A DNA stretch of 64,000 nucleotides from Stegostoma tigrinum (taxonomy: Eukaryota). This document shows, piece by piece, positions 7,535 to 56,890 of this stretch. The notes below the pieces were generated by a model. That model was not told where the DNA came from. It did not search any database and saw only the letters and a program-made list of their open reading frames with translations. The stretch lies in contig NC_081357.1 in the NCBI RefSeq assembly GCF_030684315.1, forward strand, positions 91,892,788-91,956,787, read 5' to 3'. Numbering within the stretch: the stretch's first letter is position 1; each line of letters opens with the position of its first letter. A program made the translations under genes and the position numbers.

Positions 7535-7820
7535 TTAGGCCATAAGAAATAGGAACAGGATTAGGCTATTCAGCCCCTTCAGCCTGTGAATAGATTTCAG
7601 TGAGTAATGTCCCAACCAGTTTAGCCTTTACTCATAAGAAAATCTCCCCATTCCAGAGATTATCTGAGTGAACCTTCTTTGAATTACCCCCAAAGAAATA
7701 GCACTTTTTTCCTTAAATAAGGGGACCAGAACTGCTCACAGCACTCCTGATGTGGTCTCACCAGCACCTTGTACGGTTGTGGTGCACTTCTCTAGAAGTA
7801 AGAGCCAACATTCCATTCCA
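7535..7820 (-). mobile_element. CR1 3' fragment with internal deletion
   Basis: cataagaaataggaacaggattaggctattcagccc tail; ggggaccagaactgctcacagcactcc (LEYCVQFWSP motif, reverse). Confidence 0.75.
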
Positions 7821-7956
7821 AAAACCGAAACAACTGTGGATGCTGTTAATCAGGAACAAAAACAGAAACTGCTGGAAAACCACAGCAGGTCTGGCAGCAT
7901 CTGTGAAGAAAAAAAAATCAGAGTTAGCGTTTCGGGTCCTGTGACCCTTCCTCAAA
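7820..7956 (-). mobile_element. Penelope-like terminal fragment (family B) with degenerate hammerhead motif
   Basis: Minus strand tTGAGGA-aGGGTC-acag-GACCC-GAAAC-GCT; homologous to 13196-13322. Confidence 0.7.
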
Positions 7957-8164
7957 GGAAGTCCCTTTGTGTTGTAGCTTTCTGTAGCTTTTCACCATTT
8001 AAATAAACCTCAGTTGGTCGGCTGACCTCCCTCAAGGGTAATTAAATGGGCACTCCCTGTGCAAATCATTGTGATTATCTACTTCCTTATCCCCAAAGGG
8101 ATGTTGAGAGTTCAGAAAGAAAGCAATTATTTGAAAAGGTTAACTAGCATCATAAGTTAGAGGT

Positions 8165-8256
8165 GAATGAAGAAGGATAATACCCAAAACATTGACTGTT
8201 CCTTTCCTCCAGATGCTGCCTAGCCTACTGTGCTCTTCCAGCCTCCTGTTTGTCGA
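8165..8256 (+). mobile_element. Penelope-like terminal fragment (family C), decayed hammerhead
   Basis: tgaagaaggataatacccaaaacattgact...cagatgctgcc; matches the reverse complement of 44870-44992. Confidence 0.6.
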
Positions 8257-8329
8257 ACTAACATCATAAGATGTCTCATGCCGCAAAAACTATAAAAGGC
8301 ACTGGCAAACTGAATATAACAGAATATGA

Positions 8330-8858
8330 GTGGAATACTGTGAACAGTTTTGGGGCCCTTATCTAAGGAAAGGTGTACTGATGTTGGAGGCAGTCCGCAG
8401 AAGATTCATTAGGTTCCTACCAGGTATTTTATAAGAGGGTGTGTAGGCTTGACGTGTACTCACTGGAATACAGAAGGTTGAGAGTCAACATTATTGAAAT
8501 ATAAAAGATTCTTAAGGGACTCGACAGGGCAGATGCAGAGAAGTCACTGCCAGTTGTGGGAGAGTCTAAGACCAGATGGTATAATCTCAAAATGAGGGGT
8601 CACCTAATTAGGACAGAGATTAGGAATTTCTTCTCTCTGAGTGTTCTGAATCTGTGGGTTTCTTTACCACAGAGGGCTGTGGAAGCTGGGCCATCAAGCA
8701 TATTCAAGACTGAGATAGGCAGAATTTTAATCAGTAAGGAAATCAAGGGTTGGGGGGAAAAGCAGGAGCGTGGAATTGGGGATTATCAACCACAATTTCA
8801 TTTGTTGGCTGGCAAGACTCAGTGGGCTGAATGTCCAACTTTTGTTCCTATGTCTGAA
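8330..8858 (+). mobile_element. CR1 LINE 3' fragment
   Basis: EYCEQFWGPYLRK..LEAVRRRF; GESKTRWYNLKMRG..RNFFS..WVSLPQRAVEA. Confidence 0.9.
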
Positions 8859-9542
8859 ATTCTTCTAGCGCTCTGTCAGTATGTAAAACACTGTTCCTGG
8901 GAGGACCTAACTAGAGCATGTGTTGCTAAGATTGTATACCAAAGTGGTTCAGTAACAGTAATGCGTATTTACTCTTAAGTATATCCTGAGGGGTTACCAA
9001 AGTCTCTCATGCATCTCAGAGAAAATGTAATTAGCAATTAAGTGTTATTTAATAAACCTATTATGATTAACAAGATTGAGTCTATCTTGTGCTGAAAATT
9101 TTGTCTGGACATCTTTCCCCACTTAGTGTCAGGAACTTGGACCAATGCCAATGAAAAGGCTGGATGGCAGATCATACCCAAGATATTTCAGTGGGTCCAG
9201 TGTACACAGCATGCTAATGTTTGAAAATTGCTCCCGGAGTCAGATTTGAAATTGCAACTTTGAAATCACAGACAAGTGTTCTACCAATTAAGCTGGAATC
9301 CTTGTTTATATTGTTATCCTTAGATGATGATTTGTGGCTTGATTGGATGTTCATTACAGCACCATGATACCAAAACCTTGAACTGAAGATTGCTAATTTG
9401 CTAGAGAAGTGTCAATCATAAGGGCAGTGCAAGTATAATCTTGTTAACAGTCTGCTATTGGTTGTAAGCGCTATTAGAGATCAATCTAATTGTCCTTTGG
9501 TTTTACAGCCTTTCTCAAACTGGAGTGTACCTTCTACACAGT

Positions 9543-9673
9543 AATAATGGGAACTGCAGATGGTGCAACTGCAGCTCTCTCTGATGAAGGGTCTAGGCCG
9601 GAAACGTTAGCTTTTGTGCTCCTGAGATGCTGCTGGGCCTGCTGTGTTCATCCAGCCTCACATTTCATTATCT
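9543..9673. mobile_element. Penelope-like mini insertion (family A): inverted tail plus hammerhead-bearing arm
   Basis: 17-bp TSD tgtaccttct(a/t)cacagt at 9526-9542 and 9674-9690; CTGATGA..GAAACGTT at 9581-9608. Confidence 0.85.
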
Positions 9674-10149
9674 TGTACCTTCTTCACAGTTCATTTTACT
9701 TACATAAATTGCTCAACAACTGCTCAGCTTAAAAAATAATGCCCTGTCAACTACATAATTAATATCTGGGCACCTCCAGAACAGAAACTTGTAGTGGCCT
9801 GAGCAACATGGACTATCGCAGAATCAAGTGAGAAGTCCAATGAGGGCCATGTCGAAAGTGGGAGCTGCATCTTTTATGCTTTCGATGAACGAGTCGATGG
9901 CATGTTTCTCATTAGGCAGTGGTGAGTTTCCAATTAAGGGGGATTATTGTACAGTAAACATCTGATTAGCAGCACAACTTGTCTTGTTAATATTCAGCTC
10001 TCCATTTTACCAACCAAACTTCGAGAAATCTCAACATATAAGTCACCGAGGTTAGCTCAATAGTTACTTGAATATTAGACACTGGCACAAACTTCTCAGG
10101 GCATGCTCCATGACCATGGGTTACATGCACCCCACATCAACAGACATTG

Positions 10150-10990: not shown

Positions 10991-11469
10991 CAAAAACTAA
11001 ACATAATTTGCACTTAGCAAGAAAATATAAGATACATGCCCAATCTTAGTTTTGAGTTCAAATTGTCTTGATTTTTAAACCCAGTGTAGGAATCTAATCA
11101 ACTTCACCTCACTTGGTGCAATAATCCATTGCTTCAATCAAGAATAATTAAGATTATCAAATTGTACTGTACTGTACCTGTTTAAATGTTAGTGGTTTAT
11201 AGTTAATAAGTAGTGAGAAGGGATGGTGCTGATTGGTTTAAGTCAAGTGGCCCAAGCATCAGATTGTTGTGGAAAGCTAGGAACACTTTTCCCATTAATC
11301 AAAGATGGTAAATGCTGTTTGGTCCTGTTGATACTGATACATGGATTGATTCGAATATTGCAAAGTCACCTTTGTGGAGGGTTGTAAACATATAAACATA
11401 TAATGTCTCAAAATTATCAAGATTGTTGCACTTGCCAAGGAATAACATTCGTCAGAGGACATTTCGACA

Positions 11470-13116: not shown

Positions 13117-13580
13117 GGCAGAGTGGTTAGCACTTCTGCCCACAGCACAAGAGACTCAGGTTTGATTCCTCCCTCCAATGACTGTCTGTATGGAAAACTA
13201 AAGAAGTGCAGACGCTGTAAATCAGGAACAAACACAAAGTTGCTGGAAAAGCTCAGTAGGTCTGGCAGCATCTGTGAAGGAACAAAGAGAGTTAACGTTC
13301 CAGGTGACCCTTCCTCAGAAAGGCGTTTGCACATTCTCCCTGTGTCTGTGTGAGTATCCTCCGGGTGCTCCAGTCTCCTCCCATAGTCCAAATATGTTCA
13401 GGTTAGGTAGATTGGCCATGTTAAACTCCCTATAGTGTCCACATATGGGCAGGCTAGGTGGATTAGCCATGGGAAATGCAGGGTTACATGGACAGGATAG
13501 GCTAGGGTAGGGGATTGGGTCTGCGGAGGGTCGGTGTGGATTCCATGAGCTGAATAGCCTGCTTCCACACTACTGCAATT
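13117..13580 (+). mobile_element. HE1-type tRNA-derived SINE interrupted by a Penelope-like fragment
   Basis: ggcagagtggttagcact (A box), ggtttgattcc (B box), gtttgcacattctccctgtgtctg (V-domain-like), CR1-derived tail. Confidence 0.9.
13196..13322 (-). mobile_element. Penelope-like terminal fragment (family B) nested in the HE1 SINE
   Basis: Splits the SINE motif tgtgtgga|gtttgcac; minus strand ttCTGAGGAagggtcacctGGAACGTTaac. Confidence 0.75.
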
Positions 13581-14390: not shown

Positions 14391-14530
14391 AAGTAGGAAT
14401 TGCAGATGCTGGAGAATTTGAGATAACAAGGTGTAGAGCTGGATGACATAGCAGGCCAAGCAGCATCAGAGATGGTGCTGCTTTGATGCTGCTTGGCCTG
14501 CTGTGTTCATCCAGCTCTGCACCTTGTTAT
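14391..14530. mobile_element. Penelope-like fold-back mini insertion lacking the hammerhead core
   Basis: 16-bp perfect TSD aacatattccctgtga at 14375-14390 and 14531-14546; ~50-bp inverted arms; inserted in a decayed CR1 3' end. Confidence 0.85.
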
Positions 14531-15419
14531 AACATATTCCCTGTGACTACTTTACCAAATTCTTTCAAAATTAGGAAACGGTCATGTTCACCCTTCATTT
14601 CTCAGGGCAAAAGACCTCCCTGACTGTCTATCTTTTTCTGAGAGATAATCTATTTAGGTTAAACACATCCACTGCCAGTGCATTGGGCATTGTTCACCAA
14701 CAGTGAAGAGATTTCATACATTAGGATCATTGAGCAACATCAGGGAAGAGCAAGTGGCTGCAAACACTTTCAATGAATTGGCAGAATGAACGCTGTCATC
14801 TTGTAGACATGCAAATTAACATCTGCGATTTTAACTCCCATTGCCTGGATACTATCCTATTTTTGAAATCTGGCAGACTGTTGTTATTGCTTTAACTGTT
14901 CAGCAATCTGTTTGGCAGTGAGGCGATGATTTAATCTAATAAACACATAAGGAAAACTTGTGTCTTCACGTTGACTGCTGTCTCATCATATACAAACAGA
15001 AAGGAGCCTCTGGCAATCAGAAATAAATCTGTTTATTGTTAGCTATATTGATGCTGCATTGTTTTATTAGTTCAAAGAATTGAATCACATGATTTTCAAC
15101 ATCATCCATTCACCCAGGGCTTTGTACATAATGTTGAATACTTTAATATTTGTATAATATAATTGGAATTAATAATGTAGTCTAATACTCAGGAATTTAT
15201 TTCCAATAAGGTGCTCAAAGGTGCAACAGAGGTGCGTGAGAAATATTGTGAACTGGGGAGGATTTCAAGGCCCTGACAGTCCCAGCCAGTGAGAGCTACC
15301 GTCCTCTTAAAGGATTTTGTACTGAGCAGAACTGTGGGTGCTGGCAGATGAGCATCCCAGAGTTCCAGCATCATAGAGCAACCAAAGACAAAGATAGATG
15401 ATGAGGGAGGTGGGTGTTT

Positions 15420-16209: not shown

Positions 16210-18595
16210 TATAATTCCTGGTTCCAAAGGAAGCATCAACATGACGATGGGCAACAAGAGTGGGATCCTACCCACAAACTGTGCATAAATGCCATTTGCT
16301 TTTAGCAAGAGTAAACATCACCTGGGCATCAGAAATGGCATGGGATTAAGGAAATAACATCAAGGAAAGCAGTCATGAGGGGAGTCGGCCCATAGTCAAC
16401 ACAAGGAAAGGAGGTATTACCACAGAGTGGGTCAAGACCAGTGTTGTGAGGGGAGTTCGGCCAACAGCTGATAAAGAAAGTACACACCCAGGAGCTATTG
16501 AAGTCCTTGCAGAGAGAGGTCACATGAAGACTCAGGCTGCAGGTGACGCCAGGAAGGAAATGTACACTAGCATAGCCAGTGAGGCAACAGTCGATGCACA
16601 GAGCTTCTGGACTCAAATGGCAGGAAAAATTCCCACATGGTGAGAAAATAAAATGGCGGTCCAATTAGAAGTGATGGGACCATTTATATACAGAATGTTT
16701 TAATTCATTCTTAAGGTGTTTGATAAGGTTCCCCACGGGAGGCTGATGGAGAAAGTGAAGTCACATGGGGTCCAGGGCGTGCTAGCTAGATGGATAAAAA
16801 CTGGCTAGGCAACAGGAGACAGAGAGTAGTGGTGGAACAAGGTTTCTCAAATTGGAGACCTGTGACCAGTGGTGTTCCACAGGGATCTGTGCTCAGACCA
16901 CTTTTACTTGTGATATATGTAAATGATTTGGAGGAAGGTATAGGTGGTCTGATTAGCAAGTTAGCAGATGACATGAAGATTGGTGGAGTAACAGATAGTG
17001 AAGGGGATTACAGCAGAAAATAGATAGATTGAAGAGTTGGGCAGATAAATGGCAGATGGAGTTCAATCCAGGCAAATGCGAGGTGATACATTTTGGAAGA
17101 GCTAATTCAAGAGCGAACTATACAGTAAATAGAAAAGATCTGGGGAAAATTGATGTACAGAGAGATCTGGGTGTTCAGGTCCATTGTTCCCTGAAGGTGG
17201 CAATGCAGGTCAATAGAGTGGTCAAGAAGGCGTACGGCATGCTTTCCTTCAAGGAAGGGGTATTGAGTTGGCAGGTCATGTTACAGTTGTATAAGGCTTT
17301 GGTTCGGCCACATTTGGAATACTGCGTACCGTTCCGGTTTCCACATTACCAAAAGGATTTGGATGCTTTGGAGAGGGTGCAGAGGAGGTTCACCAGGATG
17401 TTGCCTGGTATGGAGGGCGCTAGCTAAGAAGAAAGGTTGAGTGGATTAAGATTATTTTCATTAGAAAGACAGGGATTGAGGGGAGACCTGATTAAGGTCT
17501 ATAAAATCATGAGGGGTATAGACAAGGTGGATAGCAAGAAGCTTTCTCCCAGAGTGGGGGATTCAATTACCGGGGTCATGAGTTCAAAGTGAGAAAAGGA
17601 AAGTTTAGGGGAGATATGCATGGAAAGTTCTTTATGCAGAGGGTGGTGGGTGCCTGGAATGCGTTGTTAGCGGAAGTGGTAGACGCGGACATGATAGTGT
17701 CTTTTAACGTGTATTTGGACAGGTACATGGATGGGCAGGGAGCAACGGGATACAGACCCTTAGAAAATAGATGACAGGTTTAGTTAGAGGATCTCAACTG
17801 GTGCAGGCTTGGAGGGCCAAAGGGCCTGTTCCTGTGCGTTATTTTCTTTGTTCTTTGTTCTTTGTTAAAAGACACACAAAGCCTATGAGGACATTATGGT
17901 ACCAATTTTCTTAAGTACCATTGGAAAGATTTTTGTGATTCTAAGGAGTCTGGTGCAATTAGAGAAACCCACCAGAAGACATTACAAAAGCAATGTGAAG
18001 TGTTAGGAAATTATTTTCACACCCAAGCCACTGATGATCACGGTACAGCACAAAGGAAAAGAGTCCATCACCCAATTTATGGCTGCCTTTAAGAGGTTAG
18101 CAGAACTTAGTGAATGCAGAGGGTTCCTCCAAAATGCCTCGTGGAACTGTTTAGTTTGTGGCCTCAATACTAGGTCATCCAACAGAAACTACTAACAAGG
18201 AGAGACCTATATTTTATGGCAGTTTTCAACATTGCTACCTCAGTGGTGCTGTCTCCCAGCGAAGCAACACAGTAGGCTTGACAACACCCTGGTGCGTCAA
18301 GTAGTGGAAACATGACAGAGTGTGGCACCAACTGTGGAATGCAGCTAAGGGAGCAAGACAGGCCACAAAGAGTCAATGTGTTGGACTCAAGAAGACCAGT
18401 CCCATAGGTGTAAGCGAGTGGGTCATCTGGCCTGACATTGCCAGATACAACGTAAACCAGAGAAGGAGAGTCAGAATGAAACAACACTGACGGACAAGAT
18501 ATAAAATACATGCTACCAGCCAGGGAGGTCCACCTGGCTGACTTTGTTGTAATCGCTGCATGTATAATTCCTGGTTCCAAAGGAAGCACCAACAT
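16210..18595 (+). mobile_element. Heavily deleted Gypsy LTR retrotransposon relic interrupted by CR1
   Basis: 33-bp direct repeat at 16210-16242 and 18563-18595; PBS-like tgggcaacaag after the first copy; gag-like KESITQFMAAFKRLAE..LVCGLN..IQQKLLT at 17900-18250. Confidence 0.55.
16714..17868 (+). mobile_element. CR1/HER1 LINE, 5'-truncated and relatively well preserved
   Basis: FDKVPHGRL, WRPVTSGVPQGSVL, WQMEFNPGKCEV, LVRPHLEYCV, ALERVQRRFTRMLPG; (ttctttg)n tail. Confidence 0.96.
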
Positions 18596-19174
18596 AATAG
18601 ATTGGCTATCTATGGAAGACCAAAAGTTTGAATACGGGTCTTTCTTAGGCTGGCAACCTGTGACTACTGTGTGCCACAGGGATCAGTGCTGGGACTAAAA
18701 TTATTTACAATATATGTTAATGACCTGGACGAGGAAAATGAATATAGTATTAGCCAAGTGTACGGCTGACACAAAAGATAAGTCATAAGGCAAGTGGTGA
18801 GGATGACACACAGAGGAATATACACAAGTTAGCAAATGGGTAATAAATTTAACACGTGGAATACAATGTTGGGAAATGTTTAGTTATGCACTTTAGAAGA
18901 AGAGTAGAGGAGGTGACTATCTGAATGGAGAGAGACTGCAGAAAGCTACAAAATGAAAGGAGTTGGGAGTCCTCATCTATGCATCATAAAAAGATAGTAT
19001 CCAAGTTTATCAGGTAATAAGGAAAGCAAATGGAATGTTATCCTTTATTTCGAAGGGAATAGTGTATAAAAATAGGAAGGATTTGCAAAAATAATACAAG
19101 GCATTCATCAGATAATAAAATGTGAGGCTGGATGAACACAGCAGGCCAAGCAGCATCTCAGGAGCACAAAAGCT

Positions 19175-19202
19175 GACGTTTCGGGCCTAGACCCTTCATC
19201 AG
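19175..19202 (-). ncRNA. Minimal type I hammerhead ribozyme motif (antisense arm)
   Basis: Exact reverse complement of 19213-19240. Confidence 0.65.
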
Positions 19203-19212
19203 AGAGTGCTCT

Positions 19213-19240
19213 CTGATGAAGGGTCTAGGCCCGAAACGTC
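19213..19240 (+). ncRNA. Minimal type I hammerhead ribozyme motif
   Basis: CTGATGA-A-GGGTC/TA/GGCCC-GAAA-CG-TC: conserved core, helix II, palindromic ACGT in place of helix III as described for Penelope-like element hammerheads; helix I only ~2 bp. Confidence 0.7.
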
Positions 19241-20640
19241 AGCTTTTGTGCTCCTGAGATGCTGCTTGGCCTGCTGTGTTCATCCAGCCTCACATTTTAT
19301 TATCTTGGAATCTCCAGCATCTGCAGTTCCCATTATCTCACAAGGCATTCATCAGCCAGCTGGCATGCTGTGAAAATTTTGGGTCTTTTATCTAATAAAG
19401 CTATAATGTCTTTGGAGGCAGTCCAGAAAAAGCTCACTAGGCTGATCCTGGATATGAAAGGACTGTCTTATGAGGAACGGTTGAGCCTGCACTCATTGGA
19501 ACTTAGAAGGTGTGAGATGACCTTATTGAAGCGCACACGATTCTTAGGGAACTTGACAGGATAAATGCAAAAAGATTGATTCCCCTTGTGGGAGAGTCTA
19601 TGACCAAAGGGCAAAATCTCAGAATAAGGGATCGCAAATTTAAGATAAAGATGAAGGATTTTTTTTCTCTCAGAGGGTGAGATAAATAGGTTTTAATTCA
19701 GTAAAAGAATCAAGGGTTATGGGGAAAAGGCATGAAAGAGGAGTTGAGGATTATCAGATCATCCATGTAATGATGGAGCACACCTGATGAGCTGATTTGC
19801 CTATTTCTGGCCCTATGTTTTATGAGTTTTTTTGACAATCTCCATCACAGTAAAGTGGCTTGAAGGAATTCAGTGAGACATCTCCACAACAAGATGGCAG
19901 CCTGCTGTGGGAATCCACCATTCTCCAGGAGAAAAACCAGTTCCTAGAATCAAATGTCAGTCTGACCTCAGCAACAAAGGATTGTGACCCAATCAGTCCT
20001 TTTTGTGCCGGAACATTGAACAGGCTGCACAGCAGTCATCTTGTGATTGCCTGCATTGTCAAGGATTGGTAGTTGGAATGGGTTCCTATGCCTATAACCA
20101 TGTCTTCAATTATAGTTTTCCCAATTCTGGCATCCCTCATCTCCTTCGATTCACCACCGGTGGTGGTGGTTCCATATAACTGCAAGTGGTTTGTTCCTTT
20201 CCTCATTTGCCTATAGCATCACTTGATGGGTTTAGATGTCAACAAAATGTGATTAATATCTTGAGTCTCTCTTCACCAATACACACAAGCCAGCATGTTT
20301 GCAATGTTCACTGCTGAAAACTTGGTAATTTCAATGAGTTTTGGCTCACAAAGAATTAATTAAACAAACAACCCTGACACTAGCTAACAGATAAAGAACA
20401 GCACTCCATAACTTGAGGCCTATCTGTGACACTTGGGAATGTTTCAAACCGACTGAAGTAATTTTGAAGATAAATAATTAAAATGTTACTAGAAAAAATT
20501 AAAGCTGAAAGGGAAAATGAGGATTAAATTTATTTCTATTTGCTCATGGGATGTGGCTGTCACAGGCAAGACTGATTTTTGTTGCTCATCCCTAATTGCC
20601 CTTCAGCAAGTAATAATGAATCATTGTCGTCCCACAGCCA

Positions 20641-21885
20641 TAAAAGAACAAAGAAAATTACAGCACAGGAACAGGACCTTTGACCCTCCACACATACACC
20701 AACATGCTGTCGATCACAACTAAAGCCCCATACCCACCCTTTATTCACATCTCATCCATGTATTTGTCAAGACGTCCGGTGAATGTCACTATCGTATCAG
20801 CTTCCTCTACCTCCTCTGGCAGCGAGTTCCAGACACCCACCATCCTCTGTGTAAAAACACTTGCCCTCACACCTTAAACCAATGCCCCCTAGTAAGTGAC
20901 TCTTCCAATCTGGGAAAAATCTTCTGACTACTCTTCCTATACCCGTCATAATCTTGTAGACCTCTATCAGGTCGACCCTCACCCTCCATTGTTCCACTGA
21001 GAACAATCCAAGTTTCTCCAACCCCTCTTCATAGCTAATGCCCTCCATACCAGGCAACATTCTGATAAATCTTTTCTGTATTCTCTCCAAAGCCACCACA
21101 TCCTTCTAATAGTGTAGTGACCAGAATTGAACACAATATTCCAAATGCGGCCTAACCGAGGTTCTATAAAGATGTAACATTACCTGCCAATATTTAAACT
21201 CTATGCCCCAGCTGATGAAGGCAAGCATGCCATATGCCTTGTTGATGACCTTCTCCATCTACGCTACCACTTTCAGTGACCTGTGTACCTGTACGCCCAG
21301 ATCCCTCTGCCTATCAGTACTCATAAGTGTTCTAGCATTTACTGTGTGTTTTCCATCTTGATTAGACCTTCTGAAATGCATTACCTCACATTTTTCCAGA
21401 TTAAATTCCATCTGCCACCTCTCTGCCCAAGACACCAACCGATCTATATCCTGCTGTATCCTTTGATGGTACGCATTGCTATTTGCAATTCCACCAACCT
21501 TTGTGTTATCGGCAAACTTACGAATCAAACCAGTTACCTTTTCCTCCAAATTATTTATATATATTACAAATAGCAAAGGTCCCAATACTGATCCTTGAGG
21601 AATGCCTCTAGTCATAGCCCCCTATTCAGAAATGCACCCTTCCACTGGTACCCTTGGTCTTCTATGACTGAACCAGTTTTTTATCCATCTTGCAAGCTCA
21701 TCTCTGACCCCATGCAACTTTACCTTCTGTATAAGCCTGCCATGAGGGACCTTGTTAAAGGCCTTACTGAAGTCCATGTAGACAACATCCACTGCCCTAC
21801 CGTCATCGATCATCTTCATCACTTCCTCAAAAAACTCAACCAAGTTAGTCAGACACAACCTCCCCTTCACAAAACCATGTTGCCA
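20641..21885 (-). mobile_element. CR1/HER1 LINE RT-3' fragment
   Basis: QHGFVKGRLCLTNLVEFFEEV, YMDFSKAFNKVPH, GIPQGSVLGPLLFVIYIN, FADNTK, ALERIQKRFIRMLPG. Confidence 0.95.
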
Positions 21886-21899: not shown

Positions 21900-24750
21900 T
21901 CACTTCCTCCTGCATGGTCTTTCAAGGCCCATTTGCAGTATCAGGTTCCAAAAACAGGGATGCCCAGTGGCTGAACTTTTTTTCAAAAATTCATCAAGGT
22001 ATTGCCCTAATCTACTGCATCTGTAACATCACCAAAAAAATTTGAGCAAAATAGTTAAATACAATTTGTGTCTTTGGAAATCCATGTTGACATGCCTCAA
22101 TTCATCCACACTTGTCCAAGTATCTGTTAAGGGTGTCCCAGATTATTATTCTCCCCAACCCAGTGAGGCGGAGCTCAGTCAGATGGAATTGTTTGATTTA
22201 ATTTCTTTTCTCATTTCATGAAAGATTTCCTTCTCTGATCAAAGATATCACATTCGCAATTTTTCTGTTCTCTGACACCATTCCTGAATCTGGAGGTTTG
22301 GAAGATTATGACCAGTGTATCTGCAGTGTATCCCACTCTTACTTCCCTCGGTATCTTCAAAAAGATCCCATCCAGTTCTCATGGCATATCAACTTTCAGT
22401 ACTGTTAACCTTTCCAATACTGCCTCCTCGTCCCTTTTATGCTCATCCAGCACCTCAAGTACCTTCTCTTGCACAACCATTTTGGTAACATCTACATAAA
22501 AATAGATACAAGGTAGTAACTTAGCCTCCTCTGTAAGTCTTATTTTTGGTCCCCATTCTGCTCCATCCCTCCTCTTACTGCTCTTTTATCATATATATGC
22601 CTATGGAAGACATTTGGACTTACCTTCACATTTTCATACTCTCTCCTTGTTGCTCTTCTTTCCTTTCTCACTTCAGGCCTTTTAGTCAGCAATTTCTATT
22701 AGCAACCTGATATCTTTCATGCACACCCTTTTTTCTGATTCTTCTTACTATCTCTTCAGCCTCTAGAGAATTCTTGTTTTGTTTGCCCAACTTTTAACTC
22801 ATTGTAGAAATATAACTCAACTGACTCAAAATATCTCCTCTTTAAAGAGTTAAAATTTTGATTGCCTCTCATAGAATCCCTACAGTGTGGAAACAGACCC
22901 TTTGGCCCAACAAGTCCACACTGGCCCTCAGAGCATCCCAGCCAGACCCATCACCCTATAACCCATCTAATCTATACATCCCTGAACACTATAAGTAATT
23001 TAGCATGGCTAATCCACATAGACTGCTCATCTTTTGACTGTGGGAGGAAACTGAAACTCCCATAGGGAACCCATGCAGACACAGGGAGAGTGTGCAAACT
23101 CCACACAGACAGTCGCCCAAGGTTGGAATCAAACCCAGATCCCTGGTGCTGTGATGTAGGGGTACTAACCACGGAGCCACCATGCCGTTTTGATTTCAAT
23201 TTACCATTCTCACCCACAAAAAAAGCTAACTTTCTTTTAAATTCTAGATTTCTCTTTGTCCTTTTTCATAGCTAAGCTCATCCTTATGAGGTAGATAATT
23301 CTCCTTCACGTACTATGAAAATTCTTGCCTCTCACAGTCTTTCAGGCAGTTATTATTACAGTCTGCATTACGGTAATCAAAGTACCCTGATCCAAAATGT
23401 CTGCAGTGTTTGCACCTCATTGTAAATTTCTTGCAGGTTTGGTCTTCCACATCATTCCAGATGGAGGTCTATGGAATTCACCTGGAGTACTATTTTTAAT
23501 CAATACTGTCATCTCCCCTGTTTCCTTTCCTACCTTTTCTGGATGCTTTCTGGTGCTCAGCCTTATAATTTTTCAAGTTTCTGTTATTACCACAAAATCA
23601 CATCCCAACATGGCTTCCCATCATTGCAGCTCACTCATCACTGTGCATTCACACACATGCACTTGATACCTAATTTAGACCTATCACATTCCCACTTCCT
23701 CAGATCCCACTTAACACCTCATTAGTTCTAGTGCTGAATGTCCTTCCCAAGTCTTTAGGTGGCTTGTTTTTCCTTTTTATTAGCTGCTGAGTCTGATACT
23801 CCTCACATGTTAGTTTAAACCCTCCTAACAGCACTTGCAAATTGCCTCATAAGGATGTCAGTCTCTGCTCAATTTAGGTGCAATGCTTCCACTCTGTTCA
23901 AGTCACCTATCACCCAGAACCAATACATATCTCCCAAGAACCCAGAAGCTTCCCACCATCATAATCCATCCAACCACATATCTATTTGTTCCATCTTGTC
24001 AATCTTTATGTTCACCAGCACAAAGCATCAGGAGTAATCCAGAAATTGTTCCTGTGAGCTCCTGCATCTTAATGTCCCTCTCCCCAGCTGCATAATGTCT
24101 GTCTGCAAGACTATGTTGTCCTTTCCAGCTATACCATTGGCACTGTTAAAGGTGACAGCCACTGACTAGTTGCTGTATCCCCTTCAGAATGCACTGCTGT
24201 TGTTTAGTCACATTCTGAGCCCTGGACTTAGTAAAGGCAGCATACCATCCTGGATTTACATCTGTAGCCACAGAATGACTGTTTGTCCCTTAACTACAGA
24301 ATCCTTGATCACTGTTAATTTCCTCATCTTGCTCCATTCACTGCCTTACCCTGACTAACAATCAGCCAAGTACAGCCTGCAAACCGTTAAGCGGCAGGAT
24401 GGCTACATAAGAAACATGCAGTCCATGAAACTCACAGCCCAGAGGTGCACCACAGTGACACTAGTTGCTACTTAATCATTAAAACCTGAAACTCAAGCTC
24501 CTTCAGCTGATGACAATTGCTGCACATGTGGCTGTCCAGGACAGGAAAAGAAATCCTGGTGTGTTCCCGCACAGAGCAGGGTACGCACTTCATATGGCAT
24601 TATATGTTAAACTACTACGTAACTACTCAGAAATGAACTTAAGACTTAAATAACTGATGATTCACCAGCTACTTGCCATTCAGTTGCTTCCATCACCCTC
24701 TATCTTACAGGGATGTTAATGTTTAACATAACTCTTATAACAGATATCCC
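21900..24750 (-). mobile_element. Old, long CR1 relic including ORF2 fragments and the ORF1 region
   Basis: Decayed RT linker at 22050-22850; ORF1 3' signature ttagtttaaaccctcc..tttaggtgcaa at 23810-23885; zinc-finger-like HMCSNCHQLKELE at ~24490-24530. Confidence 0.6.
22870..23187 (-). mobile_element. HE1-type SINE
   Basis: catagaatccctacagtgtggaaacag tail; tgcaaactccacacagacagtcgcccaagg; tRNA-like head. Confidence 0.92.
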
Positions 24751-25547: not shown

Positions 25548-25870
25548 GTAGAATCCCCACAGTGTGGAAACAGGCCATTCAACCCATTGAGACCACACCA
25601 ACTCTCTGAAGAGCATCCGATTCAGACCGACTCCCTACCCCATCCCTGTAGCCCTAACCTGCCCATCACTGGACAATTTTGCATGGCCAATCCAACTAGC
25701 CCGCACATCATTGGGCTGTGGGAGGAAGCCAGAGCACCTAGAGGAAACCCACGCAGACTCAGGGACAATGTGCTAATTCCACACAGACAGTCACCTGAGG
25801 CTAGATTCAAACTCAGGTCCCTGGTGTCATGAGGCAATATTGCAAATCACTGAGCCACTGTGCCGCCCAA
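25548..25870 (-). mobile_element. HE1-type SINE
   Basis: Same head, body and tail as 22870-23187. Confidence 0.9.
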
Positions 25871-28461: not shown

Positions 28462-28520
28462 TTGTGCTCCTGAGATGCTGCTTGGCCTGCTGTGTTCATC
28501 CAGCCTCACATTTTGTTGTC
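28462..28520 (+). mobile_element. Short Penelope-like terminal fragment (family A)
   Basis: ttgtgctcctgagatgctgcttggcctgctgtgttcatccagcctcacatttt, identical to the arm at 19245-19298. Confidence 0.8.
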
Positions 28521-40314: not shown

Positions 40315-42330
40315 TCATCGGAAACATGCTTCCTGCCTCCAGAGAGTGTCCAATCCCTTAATAATCTTAATCGCCTCAATCAGATCCCCTCTCATCCTTC
40401 TAAACTCAAGAGTATACGAGCCCAGTCGCTCCAATCTTTCAACATATGATAGTCCCGCCATTCCGGGAATTGACCTTGTGAACCTACGCTGCACTCCCTC
40501 AATAGCAAGAATGTCCTTCCTCAAATTTGGAGACCAAAACTGCACACAATACTCCAGGTGCGGTCTCACCAGGGCCCTGTACAGCTGCAGAAGGACCTCT
40601 TTGCTCCTATACTCAATTCCGCTTGTTATGAAGGCCAGCATGCTATTAGCTTTCTTCACTGCCTGCTGTACCTGCATGCTTGCTTTCATTGACTGATGTA
40701 CAAGAACACCTAGATCTCGTTGTACTTCCCCTTTACCTAACTTGACTCTATTGAGATAGTAATCTGCTTTCCTGTTCTTGCCACCAAAGTGGATAACCGC
40801 ACATTTATCCACATTAAAATGCATCTGCCATGCATCCATCCACTCACCTAGCCTGTCCAAGTCACCCTGTATTCTAATAACATCCTCCTCACATTTCACA
40901 CTGCCACCCAACTGTGTGTCATCAGCAAATTTGCTAATATTACTCTTAATGCCTTCATCTATATCATTAATATATATCATAAACAGCTGCAGTCCCAGCA
41001 CCGAACCTTGTGGTACCCCACTGGTCACTGCCTGCCATTCCGAAAGGGACCCATTTATCACTACTCTTCGCTTCCTGTCAGCCAGCCAATTTTCAATCCA
41101 ACTCAGTATTTTGCCCTCAATATCATGTGCCCTAACTTTGGTCACCAATCTCCTATGCGGGACTTTATCAAAGGCTTTCTGAAAGTCCAGGTACACTACA
41201 TCCACTGGTTTTCCCTTATCCATCTTCATAGATACATCCTCAAAAAATTCCAGAAGATTTGTCAAATACAATTTCCCCTTCATAAATCCATGCTGACTCT
41301 GACCTATTCTGTTACTGCTATCCAAATGAGTCTTAATTTCATCTTTTATAATTGACCCCAGAATCTTTCCCACCACTGACATCAGGCTAACTGGTCTATA
41401 ATTTCCTGTTTTCTCTCTCCCTCCTTTCTTGAAAAATGGGACAACATTTGCCACCCTCCAATCCACAGGAACTGATCCTGAATCTACAGAACGTTGGAAA
41501 ATAATTACCAATGCATCCACGATTTCTAGAGCCACCTCCCTGAGTACCCTGGGACGTGGACAATCAGGTCCCAGGGATTTATCGGCCTTCAGACCAAATA
41601 GTCTATCCAACACCATTCCCTGCCTAATATAAATACCCTTCAGTTCACCCATTACCCTAGGTCCTTCAGCCACTATTGCATCTGGGAGATTGCTTGTGTC
41701 TTTCCTAGTGAAGACAGATCCAAAGTACCTATTCAACTCTTCTGCCATTTCCTTGTTCCCCATAATAAATTCACCCGTTTCTGACTTCAAGGGCCCAATT
41801 TTAGTCTTAACCTTTTTTTTCTTTTCACATACCTAAAAAAGCTTTTACTATCCTCCTTTATATTTTTGGCCAGTGTGCCTTCATACCTCATTTTTTCTCC
41901 ACGTATTGCCTTTTTAGTTGTCCTCTGTTGCTCTTTAAAACTTTCCCAGTCCTCCGGCTTCCCACTCATCTTTGCTATGTTATACTTCTTCTCTTTTATC
42001 TTTATACAGTCCTTAACTTCCCTCGTCAGCCACGGCCACCCCTGCCTCCCCTTCGGATCTTTCTTCCTCTTTGGAATGAACTGATCCTGCACCTTCTGCA
42101 TTATATCCAGAAATGCCTGCCATTGTTGTTCCACTGCCATCCCTGCTAAGATATTGTACCATTGAACTTTGGCCAGCTCCTCCCTCATAGTTCCATAGTT
42201 CCCTTTATTCAACTGCAATACTGGCACTTCCGATTCTCCCTTCTCCCTCACAAACTGCAGATTAAAACTTATCATATTATGGTCACCACCTCCTAATGGC
42301 TCCTTTACTTTGACATCCCTGATCACACCT
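40315..42330 (-). pseudogene. CR1 ORF2 (endonuclease C-terminal motif, linker, reverse transcriptase), frameshifted
   Basis: ORF 41787-42347 (EPLGGGDHN) and ORF 40315-41790 (GNYRPVSL, QHGF, YLDFQKAFDKVPH, GVPQGSVLG, FADD); frameshift near the T-run at 41813-41820 and a second near 40340. Confidence 0.93.
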
Positions 42331-42522
42331 ACTTTAATAGCACTCACCGACCTTCCCGACTGCCTCTCTGCCCTGACCTCACGTCCGCCCGGCTCGCGCC
42401 GCTCTCCGCTGCGAAAAGGACTGCTGGCTTCGAGGTAAGTACTTAAATAGCACTCACTTACCTTCCCAACTGCCTCTCTGCCCTGACCTCACATCCGCCC
42501 GGCTCGTGCCGCTCTCCGCTGC
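42330..42522 (-). repeat. 110-bp CpG-rich tandem monomers (1.75 copies), putative CR1 5' UTR/promoter
   Basis: tactt(t/a)aatagcactcac recurs at 42330 and 42440. Confidence 0.85.
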
Positions 42523-44867: not shown

Positions 44868-44992
44868 AAAAAAAATTGCAGATGCTGAAAACAATGGTAG
44901 ACAAACAGGAGGCTGGAAGAACATAATGAGCCAGGCAGCATCTGGAGGAAAGAAAAAGTCAACGTTTCAGGTATTACCCTTCTTCAGGACTC
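44868..44992 (-). mobile_element. Penelope-like terminal fragment (family C)
   Basis: ttgcagatgctg tail, ccaggcagcatctgg body, ends at a hammerhead motif. Confidence 0.7.
44956..44992 (-). ncRNA. Minimal hammerhead ribozyme motif with complete helix I
   Basis: gagtc-CTGAAGA-aGGGT/aat/ACCT-GAAA-CG-TT-gactt; helix I is gagtc:gactt. Confidence 0.65.
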
Positions 44993-49499: not shown

Positions 49500-49800
49500 C
49501 ATAGAATCCCTACAGCATGGAAGCAGGCTATTTGGTCCATCGAATCAACAACAAGCCTCCAAAGAGTCACATAGACCCAACTCCCTACCCTATCCATGTA
49601 ATCCTGCATTTCCTATGGCCAATCCACCTAAACTGCACACCTTTGGACTGTGGGAAGAAACCGGAGCACCTGAAGGAAACCCATGCAGACACAGGGAAAA
49701 TGTGCAAACTCGACGCAGACAGTTTCCCAAGGGTGGAGTCAGGCCTAGATCCCTGGAGCTGTCAAACAGCAGTGCCAACCACTGAGTCACTCTGCTGCCC
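49500..49800 (-). mobile_element. HE1-type SINE
   Basis: catagaatccctacag tail, ggactgtgggaagaaaccggagcacc body. Confidence 0.9.
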
Positions 49801-50073
49801 CAGAACTATGATGGTTCACCAAGACAACTCACTTATGTTTTTCAAAACAATAATGGTTGGATATCAAACATGGGCCTTACTAGCTACACAATAAACCCAT
49901 GAATAAATATAAAAAATTGAAAGTGTGGTATTAATGATTAATATTCTTATTTGAAATTATCAATTCCTGGGGAGAGGAGGCGATTTCTGATGTCCTAGCT
50001 CACAGTAAATATTGAACAGTTTCTCTCCACACCGGAGATATCAGAGATTTGGCCAGGGAGAGACTCTAAAGAG

Positions 50074-52218
50074 ATAATAGGAACTGCAGATACTGGAGAA
50101 TCTGAGATAATAAGGTGAGGAGCTGGATGAACACAGCAGGCCAAGCAGCGTCTTAGGAGCAGGAAAGCTGATGTTTCGGGCCTAGGCCCTTCATCGGAAA
50201 TGGGGGAGGGGAAGAGGGTTCTCAAATAAATAGGGAGAGAGGGGAGGTGGATCGAAGATGGATAGAGGAGAAGATTGGTGGAGAGGAGACAGACAAGTTA
50301 AAGAGGCGGGGATGGAACCAGTAGAGGTAAGTGTAGGTGGGGAGGTAGGGAGGGGATATGTCAGTCTGGGGAGGACGAACAGGTCAAGGGGGCGGGATGA
50401 GGTTAGTAGGTAGGAAATGGGGGTGCGGCTTGAGGTGGGAGGAGGGGATAGGTGAGAGGAAGAACAGATTAGGGACGTGGGGATGAGCTGGGCTGGTTTT
50501 GTCCTGCAGTAAGGGGAGGGGAGATTTTGAAGCTTGTGAAATCCACATTGATACCATTGGGCTGCAGGGTTCCCAAGCAGAATATGAGTTGCTGTTCCTG
50601 CAACCTTTGGGTGGCATCATTGTGGCACTGCAGGAGGTCCAGGATGGACATGTCGTCTGAGGAGTGGGAGGGGGAGTTAAAATGGTTCGCGACTGGGAGG
50701 TAGTTGTTTATTGCGAACCGAGCGGAGGTGTTCTACAAAGCAGTCGCCAAGTCTCCGCTTGGTTTCCCTGATGTAGAGGAGGCCACAGCAGGTATAGCGG
50801 ATGCAGTATACCACAGTGGCAGATGTTCAGGTGAACATCCGCTTGATGTGGAAAGTCTTCTTGGGCCCTGGGATGGGGGTTAGAGAGGAGGTGTGGGGCA
50901 GGTGTAGCACTTCCTGCGGTTGCAGGGAAAAGTGCAGGTGTGATGGGGCTGGAGGGGAGTGTGGAGCGGACAAGGGAGTCACGGAGATAGTGGTCCCTCC
51001 GGAAAGCAGACAAGGGTGGAGAGGGAAAAATGTCTTCGGTGGTGTGGTCAGATTGCAGCTGGCAGAAGTGTCCTCATTTTTCAAAGACCACAACATGCCC
51101 CCCACACTGGTCAAGAACGGCCTCGACGGTGTCTCCCGCATTTCCTGCAACTCATCCCCCACACCCCATCCCCACAATAACAAGTGAAACAGAATCCCCC
51201 TCGTCCTCATGTACCACCCCACCAACCTCCAGATTCAAAGCATCATCCTCCGACACTTCACCATCTACAATCCAACCCCACCACCAAAGATATTTTTCCC
51301 TCGCCACCCTTGTCTGCTTTCCAGAGAGACCACTCTCTCTGTGACTCCCTTGTCCACTCCACACTCCCCTCCAACCCCACCACACCCGGCACCTTCCCCT
51401 GCAACCGCAGGAAATGCTACACTTGCCCCCACACCTCCTCCCTCACCCCTATCCCAGGCCCCAAGATGACTTTCCAGATCAAACAGATGTTCACCTTCAC
51501 ATCTGCCAATGTGGTATACTGTATCCATTGTACCCATTGTGCCCTCCTCTACATCGGGGAAACCAAGTGGAGGCTTGGGGACCGCTTTGCAGAACTCCTA
51601 CACTCGGTTCGCAATAAACAACTGCACCTCCCAGTCGCGAACCATTTCAACTCGCCCTCCATCCCTCAGATGAAATGTCCATCCTGGACCTTCTGCAGTG
51701 CCACAATGATGCCACCCAAAGGTTGCAGTAATTGCAACTCATATTCTGCTTAGGAAACCTGCAGCCCAGTGGTATCAATGTAGATTTCACAAGCTTCAAA
51801 ACCTCTCCTCCCCCTATGCACCCCAAAACCAGACCAGCCTGTCTCTACCTCCCTAACTTGTTCTCCCTCTCACCTGTCTCCTCCTCCCACCTCAAGCTGC
51901 ACCCCCATTTCCTACCTACTAACCTCATCCCGCCCCCTTGACCAGTCCGTCCTCCCTGGACTGACCTAGCACCTCCCTACCTCCCAACCTACACTCATGT
52001 TTACTGGCTCCATCCCACCTCTTTAACTTGTCTGTTTCCTCACCACCGATCTTCTCCTCTATCCATCTTCGATCTGCCTCCCCCTCTCTCCCTATTTATT
52101 TCAGAACCCTCTTCCCCTCCCCCATTTCTGATGAAGGGTCTAGGCCAGAAACGTCAGCTTTCCTGCTCCTAAGATGCTGCTTGGCCTGCTTGTTCATCCA
52201 GCTCCACACTTTGTTATC
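50074..52218. mobile_element. Penelope-like (Neptune-type) 2.1-kb fold-back insertion
   Basis: Minus arm 50074-51072 and plus arm 51069-52218; 15-bp TSD agaga(c/t)tctaaagag at 50059-50073 and 52219-52233; hammerhead motifs at 50170-50197 (-) and 52128-52155 (+). Confidence 0.93.
51069..51810 (+). pseudogene. Penelope-like ORF C-terminus: Cys-rich linker plus GIY-YIG endonuclease, frameshifted
   Basis: PGTFPCNRRKCYTCP linker, NVVYCIHCTHCALLYIGETKWRLGDRF..VANHFN, LQPSGIN; RT core absent. Confidence 0.9.
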
Positions 52219-52530
52219 AGAGATTCTAAAGAGTTTGATAGGATCAATGTTTCCATCTGTAATGAAGAACAAAACCAGGTTTATAAATTTGAAACAAATG
52301 TAAATACATCCAATAGGGAATTTAGGTAAAATTTCTTTACACAGAAAGTAGACAGAATATGGAACTAACTACGACATGGAGTGGTTGAGAATCAAGGGAA
52401 AAACTGCGTGAATACAAGTAGGCAAAGGGAATAGAAGGATGTCTTGATGGCATTAGATAAATGATGCAAAGAGGATGCTCCTGTATAGTAGGAACATGAT
52501 TAGAGCAGTAATATCGAATGGCCAGTTGTA
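52219..52530 (+). mobile_element. Decayed CR1 3' end (target of the Penelope-like insertion)
   Basis: ILKSLIG..MFP.., aatttctttacacagaaagtag..atggaac. Confidence 0.6.
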
Positions 52531-53430: not shown

Positions 53431-53562
53431 AGTTCTGAAGAATTATACCGGACTCAAAACATTAACTTTGTTTCTGCCACGACAGGCGCCGCCAATCCTG
53501 CTGAGTTACTCCAGCATTCTGTATTTGTTTCAGATTTTAAACATCTGCAGTATTTTGCTTTA
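53431..53562 (+). mobile_element. Penelope-like terminal fragment with decayed hammerhead
   Basis: agtt-CTGAAGA...aAAACATT-aact; catctgcagtattttgcttt tail. Confidence 0.65.
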
Positions 53563-53667
53563 TACAAATGTTTAGTCAACTAGCTTATAGTAACCTGTTT
53601 AATCCTCTGGGACTTTTTCATTACGTAAGGATTCCTGCAAGATTACTACCAGTGTATCAACTTTTGT

Positions 53668-53915
53668 AGAATCCCTACAATGTGGAAGTAGGCCATTTGG
53701 CCCATTGAGTCCACACTGACCCTCTGAAGAGCATCCTAACCTGGCCCACCCCCAACCCTACCCCTTTATTTCACACCTTAGACACAATGGGCAATTTAAC
53801 ATGGCCAATCCACTTAACCTGCACATCCTTCAACTGTGGGAGGAAACCCACACATACACAGGGGGAACATGCAAACTCCACACAGACAGTCACCCTAGGC
53901 AGGAATCAAACCCAG
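53668..53915 (-). mobile_element. HE1-type SINE lacking the head
   Basis: tagaatccctacaatgtggaag...gcaaactccacacagacagtcacc. Confidence 0.85.
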
Positions 53916-56099
53916 ACTACTCCTGCTCTTATTTCCTATACATCTATGTACTGTGAAGACTAATGCAAAATATCACAGCTATTTCCTGGTTTCCCATGAT
54001 TATTTCCCTAGCCTTGTTCTCTTAATCACCAGTGAGCATTGTTGCCTCTCTCTTACTTTTTATAGGTTAGCCTAAGCTCTTACTGACCATTTTTGTGTTC
54101 CTTGTTAGTTTGCCCTCATTTTTTGATTGTCTTTTGTTTGCGTTTTAAAACTTTCCCAATCAGCTGATGTACCACTAATCTTTGCCATGTTGTATGTTTT
54201 TCTTCCAATTTGACACTGTCTTTAACTTCCCTGGTTAACCATGGTCAGTTTATCCCCTTCCTAGAATCTTTCTTTCATACTGGGGTTTATGTTTGCTGCA
54301 AGTAATGAACCCTTTTTTCAAACATCTGCCATTTTTCCTCAACCACATTTTCTATTAATTTCCTTTCCTAGACCACTCCAGCTAATTCTACACTGTTTGG
54401 AAAAGAATTTCCTATATTTGCTACTGTTTAAATCTTCTTTCTGGTTCTGGTACCAATTTGTTGTGACGAACTTTCAGTACCAACTTACTACTACCGAATT
54501 TTAATGTCCACTTTCTGCCACAGAGATGCCATGTGGTTTTCTATATGTTAGACTATATGTTAGTCTATATGTGTAACATGTATCACAGAAACTGCATTCA
54601 TATTAAGACAGATGTCTTGAAGTTTATCTGCAATGCTGACTGTGCATGTTAACATAAAGTCACAGGGTTAGATACGCAGTCTGACTACTATGCTTACATT
54701 GATTACTGTTATGCTAAATATATGAGTGATTGACTGAACAAACCAAAACAAAACAAAGAACTGTGGATGCTGAAGAACTGAAACAAAAACTCAGCAGGCC
54801 TGAAAGCAGCAAATCCAATGAACTCAATATCGAAATATATTGAAACCTGAATGCTTCCTTCTATGTCGTTTTACTCACCCCTATAGTGAGTGCAATAATT
54901 TTACAACCTGAACACCTCCTTCTGTATCCTTTACCCAATTTGCATCCCAGGCCCTGTTGTGACAGAGCAGTGGACCAATTTTCACATACATGCGCTCTAC
55001 ATCATCAGTGTTTCTTTCTCCCTGGCATATTAACTCTACGCCTTTGTCAGGCTAATTGTTGTTCTCCCTCTCTGGACTCCCTTATCATAGTTACTATCAG
55101 TTTTGAAGAAGGACCACTGACATTACAAATGCTGTCAGATCAGCATAACAAACAATCCAGAATGAGTCAGACTCACTGTTGTAAATAAGATGGAGATCTT
55201 AGAACATCACATGCCATGGTGTCACCAAGCTGAGTTAAAGGTACAGTGCCTGATGAGATCTATGCAACGATCATATGATACTTCTGGGCTTGTTTTTAAC
55301 CCAAGAGCAGCAACATCAGCCGAACTGATATTTGCTTAAAGCACTGCTGGGAGCAACATCCCTGTATACTTCAAATGGTCTTGGATCAATGCAGATTGAA
55401 GGAGAACTGTGAACAAAACTGATATGTTATTCTTGATGACAGATTGCACTTTAAATGGGATTACATTTCCTGGTTCTGATAGGTACATTGTATAAAGTGA
55501 TAAACATTCAAGGTCTTTAAAGCCTCTTTGGGAACCAAAGCACCTCTGTAATTGTTTCCATCCCCGGCAGCATCTATTGCTAGACAGGTCATTTATAGAG
55601 GTGATTTTATTTTCGCAGAGACTTGATTTAGTAAAGTGGCAGTGTTGATGTATGGTCCACCTTCTGGCTTTGCTCATACTAACCAGTCAACAATAGCGAA
55701 CCTTTAAAGAATAACTTCTCCTGTACACAGGCAGTGGAGATGACATTAATAGTTGCCATCACTCGCTGGTGAGATTTCATAAAGTTATAGAACGATAACA
55801 GCACAGAGGCAGGATGTTTAGCCCTTCATGCCTGTTCTGGCTCTTTAACAGAATGATCCAATTAATCCCCCTCCCTGATTTTTCTTCCTACTTCTGTAAA
55901 TTTGTTGCCTTCAAGCATTTACAGAATTCTGTTTGGAAAGTTACCAATGTATCCACTTACACTACTTTTTCAGGAACAGCGCTTCAGATCACGAGAACCT
56001 ATAGAGCAAATGATTCTTTCCTCGTTTCATCTCTCACTTTTTTTGCCAATCTCCTAAAAACCATGTCCATTGGTTACAAACCCTAATGCTATGGGAAAC

Positions 56100-56890
56100 T
56101 CCCCCTCCCATTCCTCAGATGACATGTCCATCATGGGCCTCCTGCAGTGCCACAATGATGCCACCCGAAGGTTGCAGAAACAGCAACTCATATTCCACTT
56201 GGGAACCCTGCAGCCCAATGGTATCAATGTGGACTTCATAAGCTTCAAAATCTCCCCTTCCCCCACAGCATCCCAAAACCAGCCCAGCCTGTCTCCGTGA
56301 TAATGGGAACTGCAGATGCTGGAGAATCCCAGATAATAAAATGTGAGGCTGGATGAACACAGCAGGCCCAGCGGCATCTCAGGAGCACAAAAGCTGACGT
56401 TTCAGGCCCATCCTCTCTGATGAAGTGTCTAGGCCCGAAATGTCAGCTTTTGTGCTCCTGAGATGCTGCTGGGCCTGCTGTGTTCATCCAGCCTCACATT
56501 TTATTATCCCAGCCTGTCTCCTCTTCCCTAACCTGTTCTTCCTCTCACCCATCCCTTCCTCCCACCTCAAGCCACACCTCCATCTCCTACCTACTAACCT
56601 CATCCCACCTCCTTGACCTGTCCATTTTCCCTGGGCTGACCTATCCCCTCCCTACCTCCCCAACTACACTCTCCTCTCCACCTATCTTCTTTTCTCTCCA
56701 TCTTCAGTCCGCCTCCCCCTCTCTCCCTATTTATTCCAGAACCCTCTCCCCAGCCCCCTCTCTGATGAAGGGCCTAGGCCCAAAACGTCAGCTTTTGTGC
56801 TCCTGAGATGCTGCTTGGCCTGCGGTGTTCATCCAGCTTCACACTTTGTTATCTTGGATTCTCCAGCATCTGCAGTTCCCATTATCACTA
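56100..56890 (+). mobile_element. 5'-truncated Penelope-like insertion (endonuclease C-terminus, terminal repeat, tail)
   Basis: 11-bp TSD ctatgggaaac at 56089-56099 and 56891-56901; QQLIFHLGTLQPNGINVDF; hammerhead-like 56762-56789. Confidence 0.9.
56297..56507. mobile_element. Fold-back mini Penelope-like element nested in a copy of its own family
   Basis: 14-bp TSD cccagcctgtctcc at 56283-56296 and 56508-56521; inverted arms; tail on the left arm only. Confidence 0.9.

Follow-up and report, generated by a model that had tools for sequence, protein, structure and literature searches.

This work examines the hammerhead ribozyme motifs of a 64,000-nucleotide stretch of the Stegostoma tigrinum genome (contig NC_081357.1, positions 91,892,788 to 91,956,787), hereafter the window. 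Judged from sequence, these motifs are known minimal type I hammerheads located in the terminal pseudo-long terminal repeats (pLTRs) of endonuclease-bearing, Neptune-like Penelope elements. All 12 hammerhead sites listed in a preliminary description of this DNA were found in the window, as were the helix II and helix I variants quoted there; the coordinates given for minus-strand sites lie near the low end of each motif, with the core C3 at 19202, 50197, 7955, 13318, and 44987. Signed positions are counted here from hammerhead C3 as 0, and the predicted cut falls between +27 and +28.

Hammerhead-bearing insertions in the window

A search with a profile built from window copies retrieved 20 pLTR-like pieces in the window, compared to none in a reversed 1.214-Mb control. 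The 20 pieces take in a decayed 13th motif at 38709 as well as pieces lacking a hammerhead. The features are given below with their target-site duplications (TSDs) and, where present, their 3' untranslated regions (UTRs).

9577-9612, plus strand: tail-less family A1 minimal hammerhead, the copy running from -4, with all core bases kept and the closing pair of helix II disrupted; an inverted tail fragment adjoins it, and a 16-bp TSD surrounds the insertion
19110-19206, minus strand: inverted pLTR arm without tail, with an intact hammerhead at 19171-19206
19209-19339, plus strand: full family A1 pLTR with a 34-nt tail, intact hammerhead at 19209-19244, and predicted cut after 19240; head-to-head with the preceding arm, the pair being flanked by a 16-bp TSD (19096-19111, 19340-19355)
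50074-51073, minus strand: family A2 arm that includes the tail, the 3' UTR, and a remnant of the endonuclease; its hammerhead (50166-50201) is broken (U4, G16.2)
51074-52218, plus strand: mirror arm of the same 2.15-kb insertion (15-bp TSD, 50059-50073 and 52219-52233), without tail; 51181-51753 holds the reverse transcriptase (RT) end, Cys linker, and GIY-YIG remnant, followed by a TATA-like box at 52093 and a hammerhead at 52124-52159 with a broken helix II pair
56297-56508, both strands: young head-to-head pLTR pair inside an older family A copy, 14-bp TSD; the plus-arm hammerhead (56413-56448) starts near -4 and the minus arm starts within the hammerhead
56100-56890, plus strand: the host family A copy, with endonuclease end, 3' UTR, TATA-like box at 56728, and tail, 11-bp TSD; hammerhead at 56758-56793, G12 lost
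7829-7959, minus strand: family B pLTR, hammerhead at 7922-7959 broken (C3, U16.1)
13200-13322, minus strand: family B pLTR, helix II partly deleted
44871-44991, minus strand: family C pLTR, intact hammerhead at 44957-44991 with 4-bp helix I and a G ahead of its first base
8163-8255, plus strand: family C pLTR without tail, hammerhead broken (C3, G12), TSD of about 15 bp
53431-53557, plus strand: B-related (family D) pLTR with helix I intact, G12 lost, and helix II degenerate
38705-38805, plus strand: further decayed B-related pLTR with a hammerhead remnant, absent from the preliminary description
14396-14542, both strands: head-to-head pLTR pair truncated downstream of the hammerhead
28462-28520, plus strand: family A pLTR fragment that begins 5 nt past the cut site

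Only three of the 12 motifs are fully intact (19202 on the minus strand, 19213 on the plus strand, and 44987 on the minus strand). Another three (9581, 52128, and 56417) keep every core base with a helix II pair broken, so that core bases are retained in 6 of 12 copies overall. Loss of core bases affects the remaining six: 50197 (U4, G16.2), 56762 (G12), 7955 (C3, U16.1), 13318 (helix II/GAAA), 8167 (C3, G12), and 53435 (G12). As far as these bases tell, most motif copies in the window are catalytically broken. Among the 12 matches returned by an Rfam scan of the window at E≤10, a check that had been proposed for the motifs, none was to a hammerhead model; the hammerhead-less pair at 14396-14542 gave sub-threshold microRNA matches in Rfam.

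The motifs had been described as lying mostly in tiny noncoding insertions. This does not apply to 50197/52128 and 56762, which are parts of 0.8- to 2.2-kb insertions with endonuclease-coding remnants; the tiny insertions themselves are 5'-truncated pLTRs and not a separate element. The window insertions have the anatomy of endonuclease-positive (EN+) Penelope-like elements (PLEs): their TSDs measure 11 to 16 bp, the second copy is inverted, and just one arm carries a 34-nt tail.

The parent element and its hammerheads

The 190-amino-acid frame at 51181-51753 has at least 150 matches in the genome. Fetched loci contained near-complete open reading frames (ORFs) with RT motifs, a C-x4-C-x2-C linker, and a GIY-YIG domain; Pfam matches to RVT_1 and GIY-YIG were obtained within the ORF, both under the curated cutoffs, and a PDB sequence search with the ORF gave no match. 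Two of the 10 candidates fetched, L135 and L136, are intact pLTR-ORF-pLTR elements of about 3.7 kb, with ORFs of 1,089 and 1,075 amino acids, respectively, and these confirm the proposed Penelope origin of family A. For families B and C, the same origin is borne out by one copy each (L231 for B and L210 for C), in which a pLTR lies downstream of GIY-YIG or RT remnants. The arrangement in L135 and L136, a single ORF with RT plus a GIY-YIG domain at the C terminus, between pLTRs, is that of EN+ PLEs, and their linker between RT and endonuclease conforms to CX2-5CxxC. This linker is common to Neptune and Nematis (Craig et al., bioRxiv 10.1101/2021.04.23.441226), and on sequence grounds it points to Neptune or Nematis rather than Poseidon. 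Among the 5'-complete copies for which upstream sequence was read, 3' UTR sequence from a partial tandem mostly lies ahead of the 5' pLTR.

The first Met of the ORF lies 166 nt after C3, past the tail. An ATG at +46 (in the 5' pLTRs of L135 and L136, and in the window at 19259-19339) opens a 27-codon frame that ends in a TGA just past the tail and is in frame with the main ORF; family C has not preserved this short frame, which may therefore be due to chance. A conserved stem predicted in families A and C pairs GATGCTG, downstream of the hammerhead, with CAGCATC of the tail (19254-19325; 44870-44945, minus strand) and is a candidate RT-recognition structure. The idea of a splice acceptor after the cut site (branch-like motif, pyrimidine tract, and AG before the ATG) was ruled out, as the AG is missing from subfamilies A2 and A3 and pairing of the segment with the tail is predicted.

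Clustering of 255 hammerhead-bearing copies gave one large lineage, A (141 copies), and many older families. The core (CUGANGA, GAAA, and UH) is present in the majority line of every family. Helix II begins with G10.1-C11.1 after an unpaired base that follows A9; 88.8% of helix II cells are paired, and 3 of its 4 pairs exhibit two-sided changes (20 copies across families). Helix I is closed in the manner of type I hammerheads by 4 bp with compensatory changes in families B (AGTT/AACT), C (AGTC/GACT), and E (AGCT/AGCT), but by only 2 bp in lineage A. The palindromic 15.1-16.1 segment is ACGU in intact copies.

The covariation reported in the preliminary description holds between families, where two-sided changes occur in 5 of 8 pairs, and fails within them. 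The set consisted of 20 hand-picked copies from the families. The two-sided changes occupy 11 cells, a number reached by 0 of 500 shuffles (the pair count was reached by 27 of 500), and 84% of cells are paired, compared to at most 49% in slid controls. As the copies were chosen by motif and are mutually related, these statistics are supportive and are not to be read as a probability. No purifying selection was seen on inserted A1 copies, in which differences affect 15 of 510 core sites and 42 of 2,193 sites downstream (p=0.17); G12, which lies in a CpG, has changed in 9 of 51 copies, and 35 of 51 retain an intact core. Variation within family A looks like neutral decay. Since the A1 core is unprotected in inserted copies, selection likely acts on master elements instead.

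The very high motif density noted for the window extends to the whole 3.2-Gb genome, which gave 176,000 intact-core matches versus 712 in the control. Exact copies of a family A 30-mer numbered 90,316, versus 0 in the control, and the two comparisons together exclude chance. A profile search of a 1.214-Mb genome sample retrieved 403 pLTR-like pieces, versus 0 in the reversed sample, and 70 exact copies in 1.214 Mb correspond to an estimated 184,000 genome-wide.

Copy ends and their origin

Copy ends were read from 107 copies with ≥88% identity in 1.014 Mb. Their 3' ends lie at +89 to +95 in 43 and at +124 to +126 in 53, in agreement with the two RT start sites of the Anolis element PAc (PMC11167929). 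Of the 107 5' ends, 31 fall between -6 and +1 within a continuum that reaches as far as -2,435. A genome-wide pattern search for copies beginning at -4, which lets through about half of them, gave 4,594. A hand count of the 100 matches listed put G before the -4 start in 67 cases, T in 26, and A in 7 (the pattern excludes C); of the 67 G, 29 could be templated by an inverted arm and 38 could not. At contig joints with inserted letters, a single G was found in 4 of 12 cases among the matches listed, all of them joined to -4 or -2. The motif TATTTAT starts 29 to 31 nt upstream of -4 in each of the 119 copies where it was found (at -30 in 104). One family B copy has TATAAA at -29 followed by the initiator-like CATCAGTT, in which AGTT forms the 5' strand of helix I; one family C copy has TTTAT at -30.

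An extra G marks capped full-length L1 insertions (PMC11702581). Based on the pileup at -4, the TATA-like box 30 nt ahead of it, and the extra G, we infer that the RNA likely starts, capped, at -4, just ahead of the core, and is driven from an upstream tandem copy. The Penelope element of Drosophila virilis has an internal, TATA-less promoter with a downstream promoter element, RGACGTGY (PMC2377424), and a TATA-driven start is therefore not general among these elements, which counts against this interpretation. The palindromic ACGT found in all families (19236-19239) occupies +28 to +31 from the proposed start, the place of a downstream promoter element, and might serve at the DNA level too.

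A second concentration of copy ends was found at the ribozyme cut site. Apparent 5' starts were counted genome-wide with a pattern that excludes intact hammerheads and perfect AGCT fold-backs, giving 552 at +27, 2,433 at +28, 688 at +29, and 601 at +30. This one-base peak coincides exactly with the predicted cut site; starts at +28 amount to about 1.3% of the estimated exact copies. Among 100 matches listed (hand count), the base before +28 is A in 46, G in 34 (15 of them in one fold-back context), and T in 20, and there is thus no cap-like excess of G. Twelve microhomology models with general partners yielded ratios of 0.43 to 1.26, compared to 3.96 observed. In L207, L209, L210, and L225, copies starting at +28 abut tail or ORF N-terminal sequence with nothing in between, the joint expected of template jumps from a cut RNA end. 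The +28 count is not pure, since the 30 loci examined include one intact copy with an inserted base and several deletions or duplications.

From these ends, it is likely that the element RNA cuts itself in a small minority of cases in the living animal. Several observations weigh against this. The genome-wide profile is limited to the four positions +27 to +30, and the random sample holds 0 to 1 copies starting at +28, which fits a frequency of 1 to 2% and provides no independent support. Family B gave 277 matches; of the 100 listed, about 11 begin at the cut, with the helix I complement accounting for 5 of these, and about 12 begin 3 nt upstream. Folding predictions for the A1 monomer place the core within an inactive hairpin (-11.4 kcal/mol, making up 84% of the ensemble), and the predicted active dimer, at -5.5 versus -22.8 for two monomers, lies about 17 kcal/mol above them. 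Dimeric activity, as suggested in the literature, would involve a helix III that can be drawn yet is not predicted as a stable fold. In PAc, a Poseidon element of Anolis carolinensis, the insertion substrate is mostly uncut RNA and no RNA sequencing reads end at the cut site, while cleavage requires protein (Frangieh et al. 2024, PMC11167929). Rare, protein-assisted cleavage fits the evidence on both sides.

The main competing explanation keeps the elements and the capped start and dispenses with cleavage in vivo: RT would stall at the base of the inactive hairpin, whose closing pair is at +29, and AGCT fold-back microhomology would add to the +28 peak. The stable inactive fold predicted for A1 and the reduction of helix I to 2 bp in the most abundant family speak for it, as do PAc mutants that insert normally (PMC11167929) and 5 of the 30 examined +28 loci, which are fold-backs with 3-nt microhomology. 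Furthermore, fold-back models can attain the observed ratio: of 12 such models, one with short offsets and a strong microhomology preference reaches 4.9 and another 2.6. However, these two models predict 76 to 90% of +28 junctions in a single context that was observed in 15 of 100 listed and 4 of 30 loci, so that fold-back accounts for the peak only in part. RT stalling should leave its ends at the first paired base or before it (+30 or +29), and both positions are at background; the pattern had already excluded perfect AGCT fold-backs, 24 of the 30 loci lack exact pLTR-arm microhomology, and conservation of the core and stems is accompanied by compensatory changes between families. We consider this explanation unlikely.

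A further alternative concerns the pileup at -4, which could mark an RT stop at a C-rich tract upstream of the hammerhead instead of the RNA 5' end. In family A such a tract does lie directly ahead of -4. This proposal leaves the G excess at the junction and the fixed spacing of the TATA-like box without explanation, and many B and C copies with unrelated upstream sequence likewise begin at -4; we regard it as improbable. Finally, that the short copies are an independent nonautonomous retrozyme- or SINE-like (short interspersed element) family starting at -4 and replicating through its own RNA is very improbable, despite their sharp 5' boundary, TSDs, and tens of thousands of copies and the derivation of animal retrozymes from pLTRs (bioRxiv 10.64898/2026.07.22.740005), because no TATA-like box lies upstream in the short copies, 5' ends grade continuously to -2,435, their pLTR is 96 to 100% identical to that of full-length copies, and window copies are dispersed or head-to-head with no tandem arrays.

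We therefore favor, with fair confidence, a model in which the minimal hammerheads belong to Neptune-like Penelope pLTRs and the tiny insertions are RT run-off copies of an RNA that is capped 4 nt before the core and, in a small minority of instances, self-cut. Within partial tandems, the 3' UTR of the upstream copy would supply a TATA box and initiator to the downstream copy, with the initiator doubling as the helix I 5' strand. Reverse transcription would begin at two pLTR sites 34 nt apart, giving tail-less and tailed ends, and would either run on through the body or reach the RNA 5' end after about 100 to 130 nt. Capped RNA ends would yield copies from -4 with an extra G; RNA cut by a dimeric or protein-assisted hammerhead would yield copies from +28; and dispersed copies, being without a promoter, would decay neutrally. 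On balance, though with less assurance than for the model as a whole, we think that the copies are a fossil record of Penelope RNA ends, comprising a capped start at a TATA/initiator whose initiator is the helix I 5' strand and an in vivo cleavage that decaps the RNA 32 nt downstream, with the cut RNA still serving as an insertion template.

Relation to known systems and significance

The hammerhead class and the insertion shapes have already been described. The minimal hammerheads of metazoan PLEs (Cervera and De la Peña 2014, PMC4209133) share type I topology without a monomeric helix III, a palindromic 15.2-16.2 segment, an unpaired base between 9 and 10.1, G10.1-C11.1, location in pLTRs, and many families per genome, mostly as solo truncated copies. 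They differ in abundance (about 4,000 in coelacanth and 9,000 in Xenopus tropicalis versus 176,000 intact cores here, with different descriptors) and in helix I, reported as 4 to 5 bp compared to 2 bp in the dominant family here. The searchable supplements of that study (file 1 is not searchable) contain no shark genus term, and the parts covered contain no copy-end analysis. PAc likewise has a pLTR hammerhead, two RT start sites bounding the tail, and tandem organization (PMC11167929); its ORF begins inside the hammerhead, whereas the first Met here lies beyond the tail, and no PAc reads end at the cut site, whereas genomic copy ends peak there in the present element.

EN+ PLE insertions (Craig et al.; Arkhipova et al. 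2013, PMC3846280) exhibit the same partial tandems, inverted 5'-truncated copy, 30- to 40-bp tail at one end, and TSDs, and a putative TATA and initiator are reported for a rotifer pLTR. In the parts of those accounts covered, 5' ends are not mapped to a capped start or cut site, and hammerhead function is called unclear. The hepatitis delta virus-like ribozyme of R2 (Eickbush et al. 2013, PMC3774820), whose cut site is mirrored in genomic 5' junctions, provides precedent for such a footprint. The R2 cut frees the element from an rRNA cotranscript and sets the majority of 5' ends, whereas the cut in the present element would take off a capped leader of 32 nt and account for about 1 to 2% of copies. 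Non-LTR (long terminal repeat) retrozymes are also pLTR derived, hammerhead bearing, and noncoding, and one chondrichthyan genome was sampled in their description (bioRxiv 10.64898/2026.07.22.740005). They are defined there as tandem repeats with a hammerhead per unit, unlike the window copies, which are dispersed or in often head-to-head inverted pairs flanked by TSDs. In the literature searched (subscription journals and bioRxiv supplements excepted), we came upon no study that relates the ends of PLE copies to the cut site or a capped start.

Other repeats also occur in the window. A LINE-type (long interspersed element) RT ORF at 40315-42488 on the minus strand (Pfam RVT_1, E 1e-32), which we take to be CR1/L2-like, is accompanied by further fragments at 2349-2714, 17002-17427, and 21259-21621. 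A 46-bp tandem repeat of about 4 to 5 units lies at 60899-61128, and a second dispersed family of about 300 bp, SINE-like by appearance, is found at 22872-23185, 25549-25863, 49502-49795, and 53667-53932.

Published accounts (PMC4209133, PMC11167929, and bioRxiv 10.1101/2021.04.23.441226) describe two questions as open: whether the minimal hammerheads of animal PLEs cleave inside cells, and for what reason they are retained. The elements L135 and L136 provide exact constructs for biochemical tests. If the copy-end peaks are RNA ends, then they reveal, without RNA data, where transcripts of an active vertebrate element start and are cut, and the mass of tiny pLTR insertions is explained. Cleavage would then be a decapping of the element's own leader rather than an obligatory release of units, and the copies would constitute evidence of in vivo cutting by a metazoan PLE hammerhead, even one with a 2-bp helix I.

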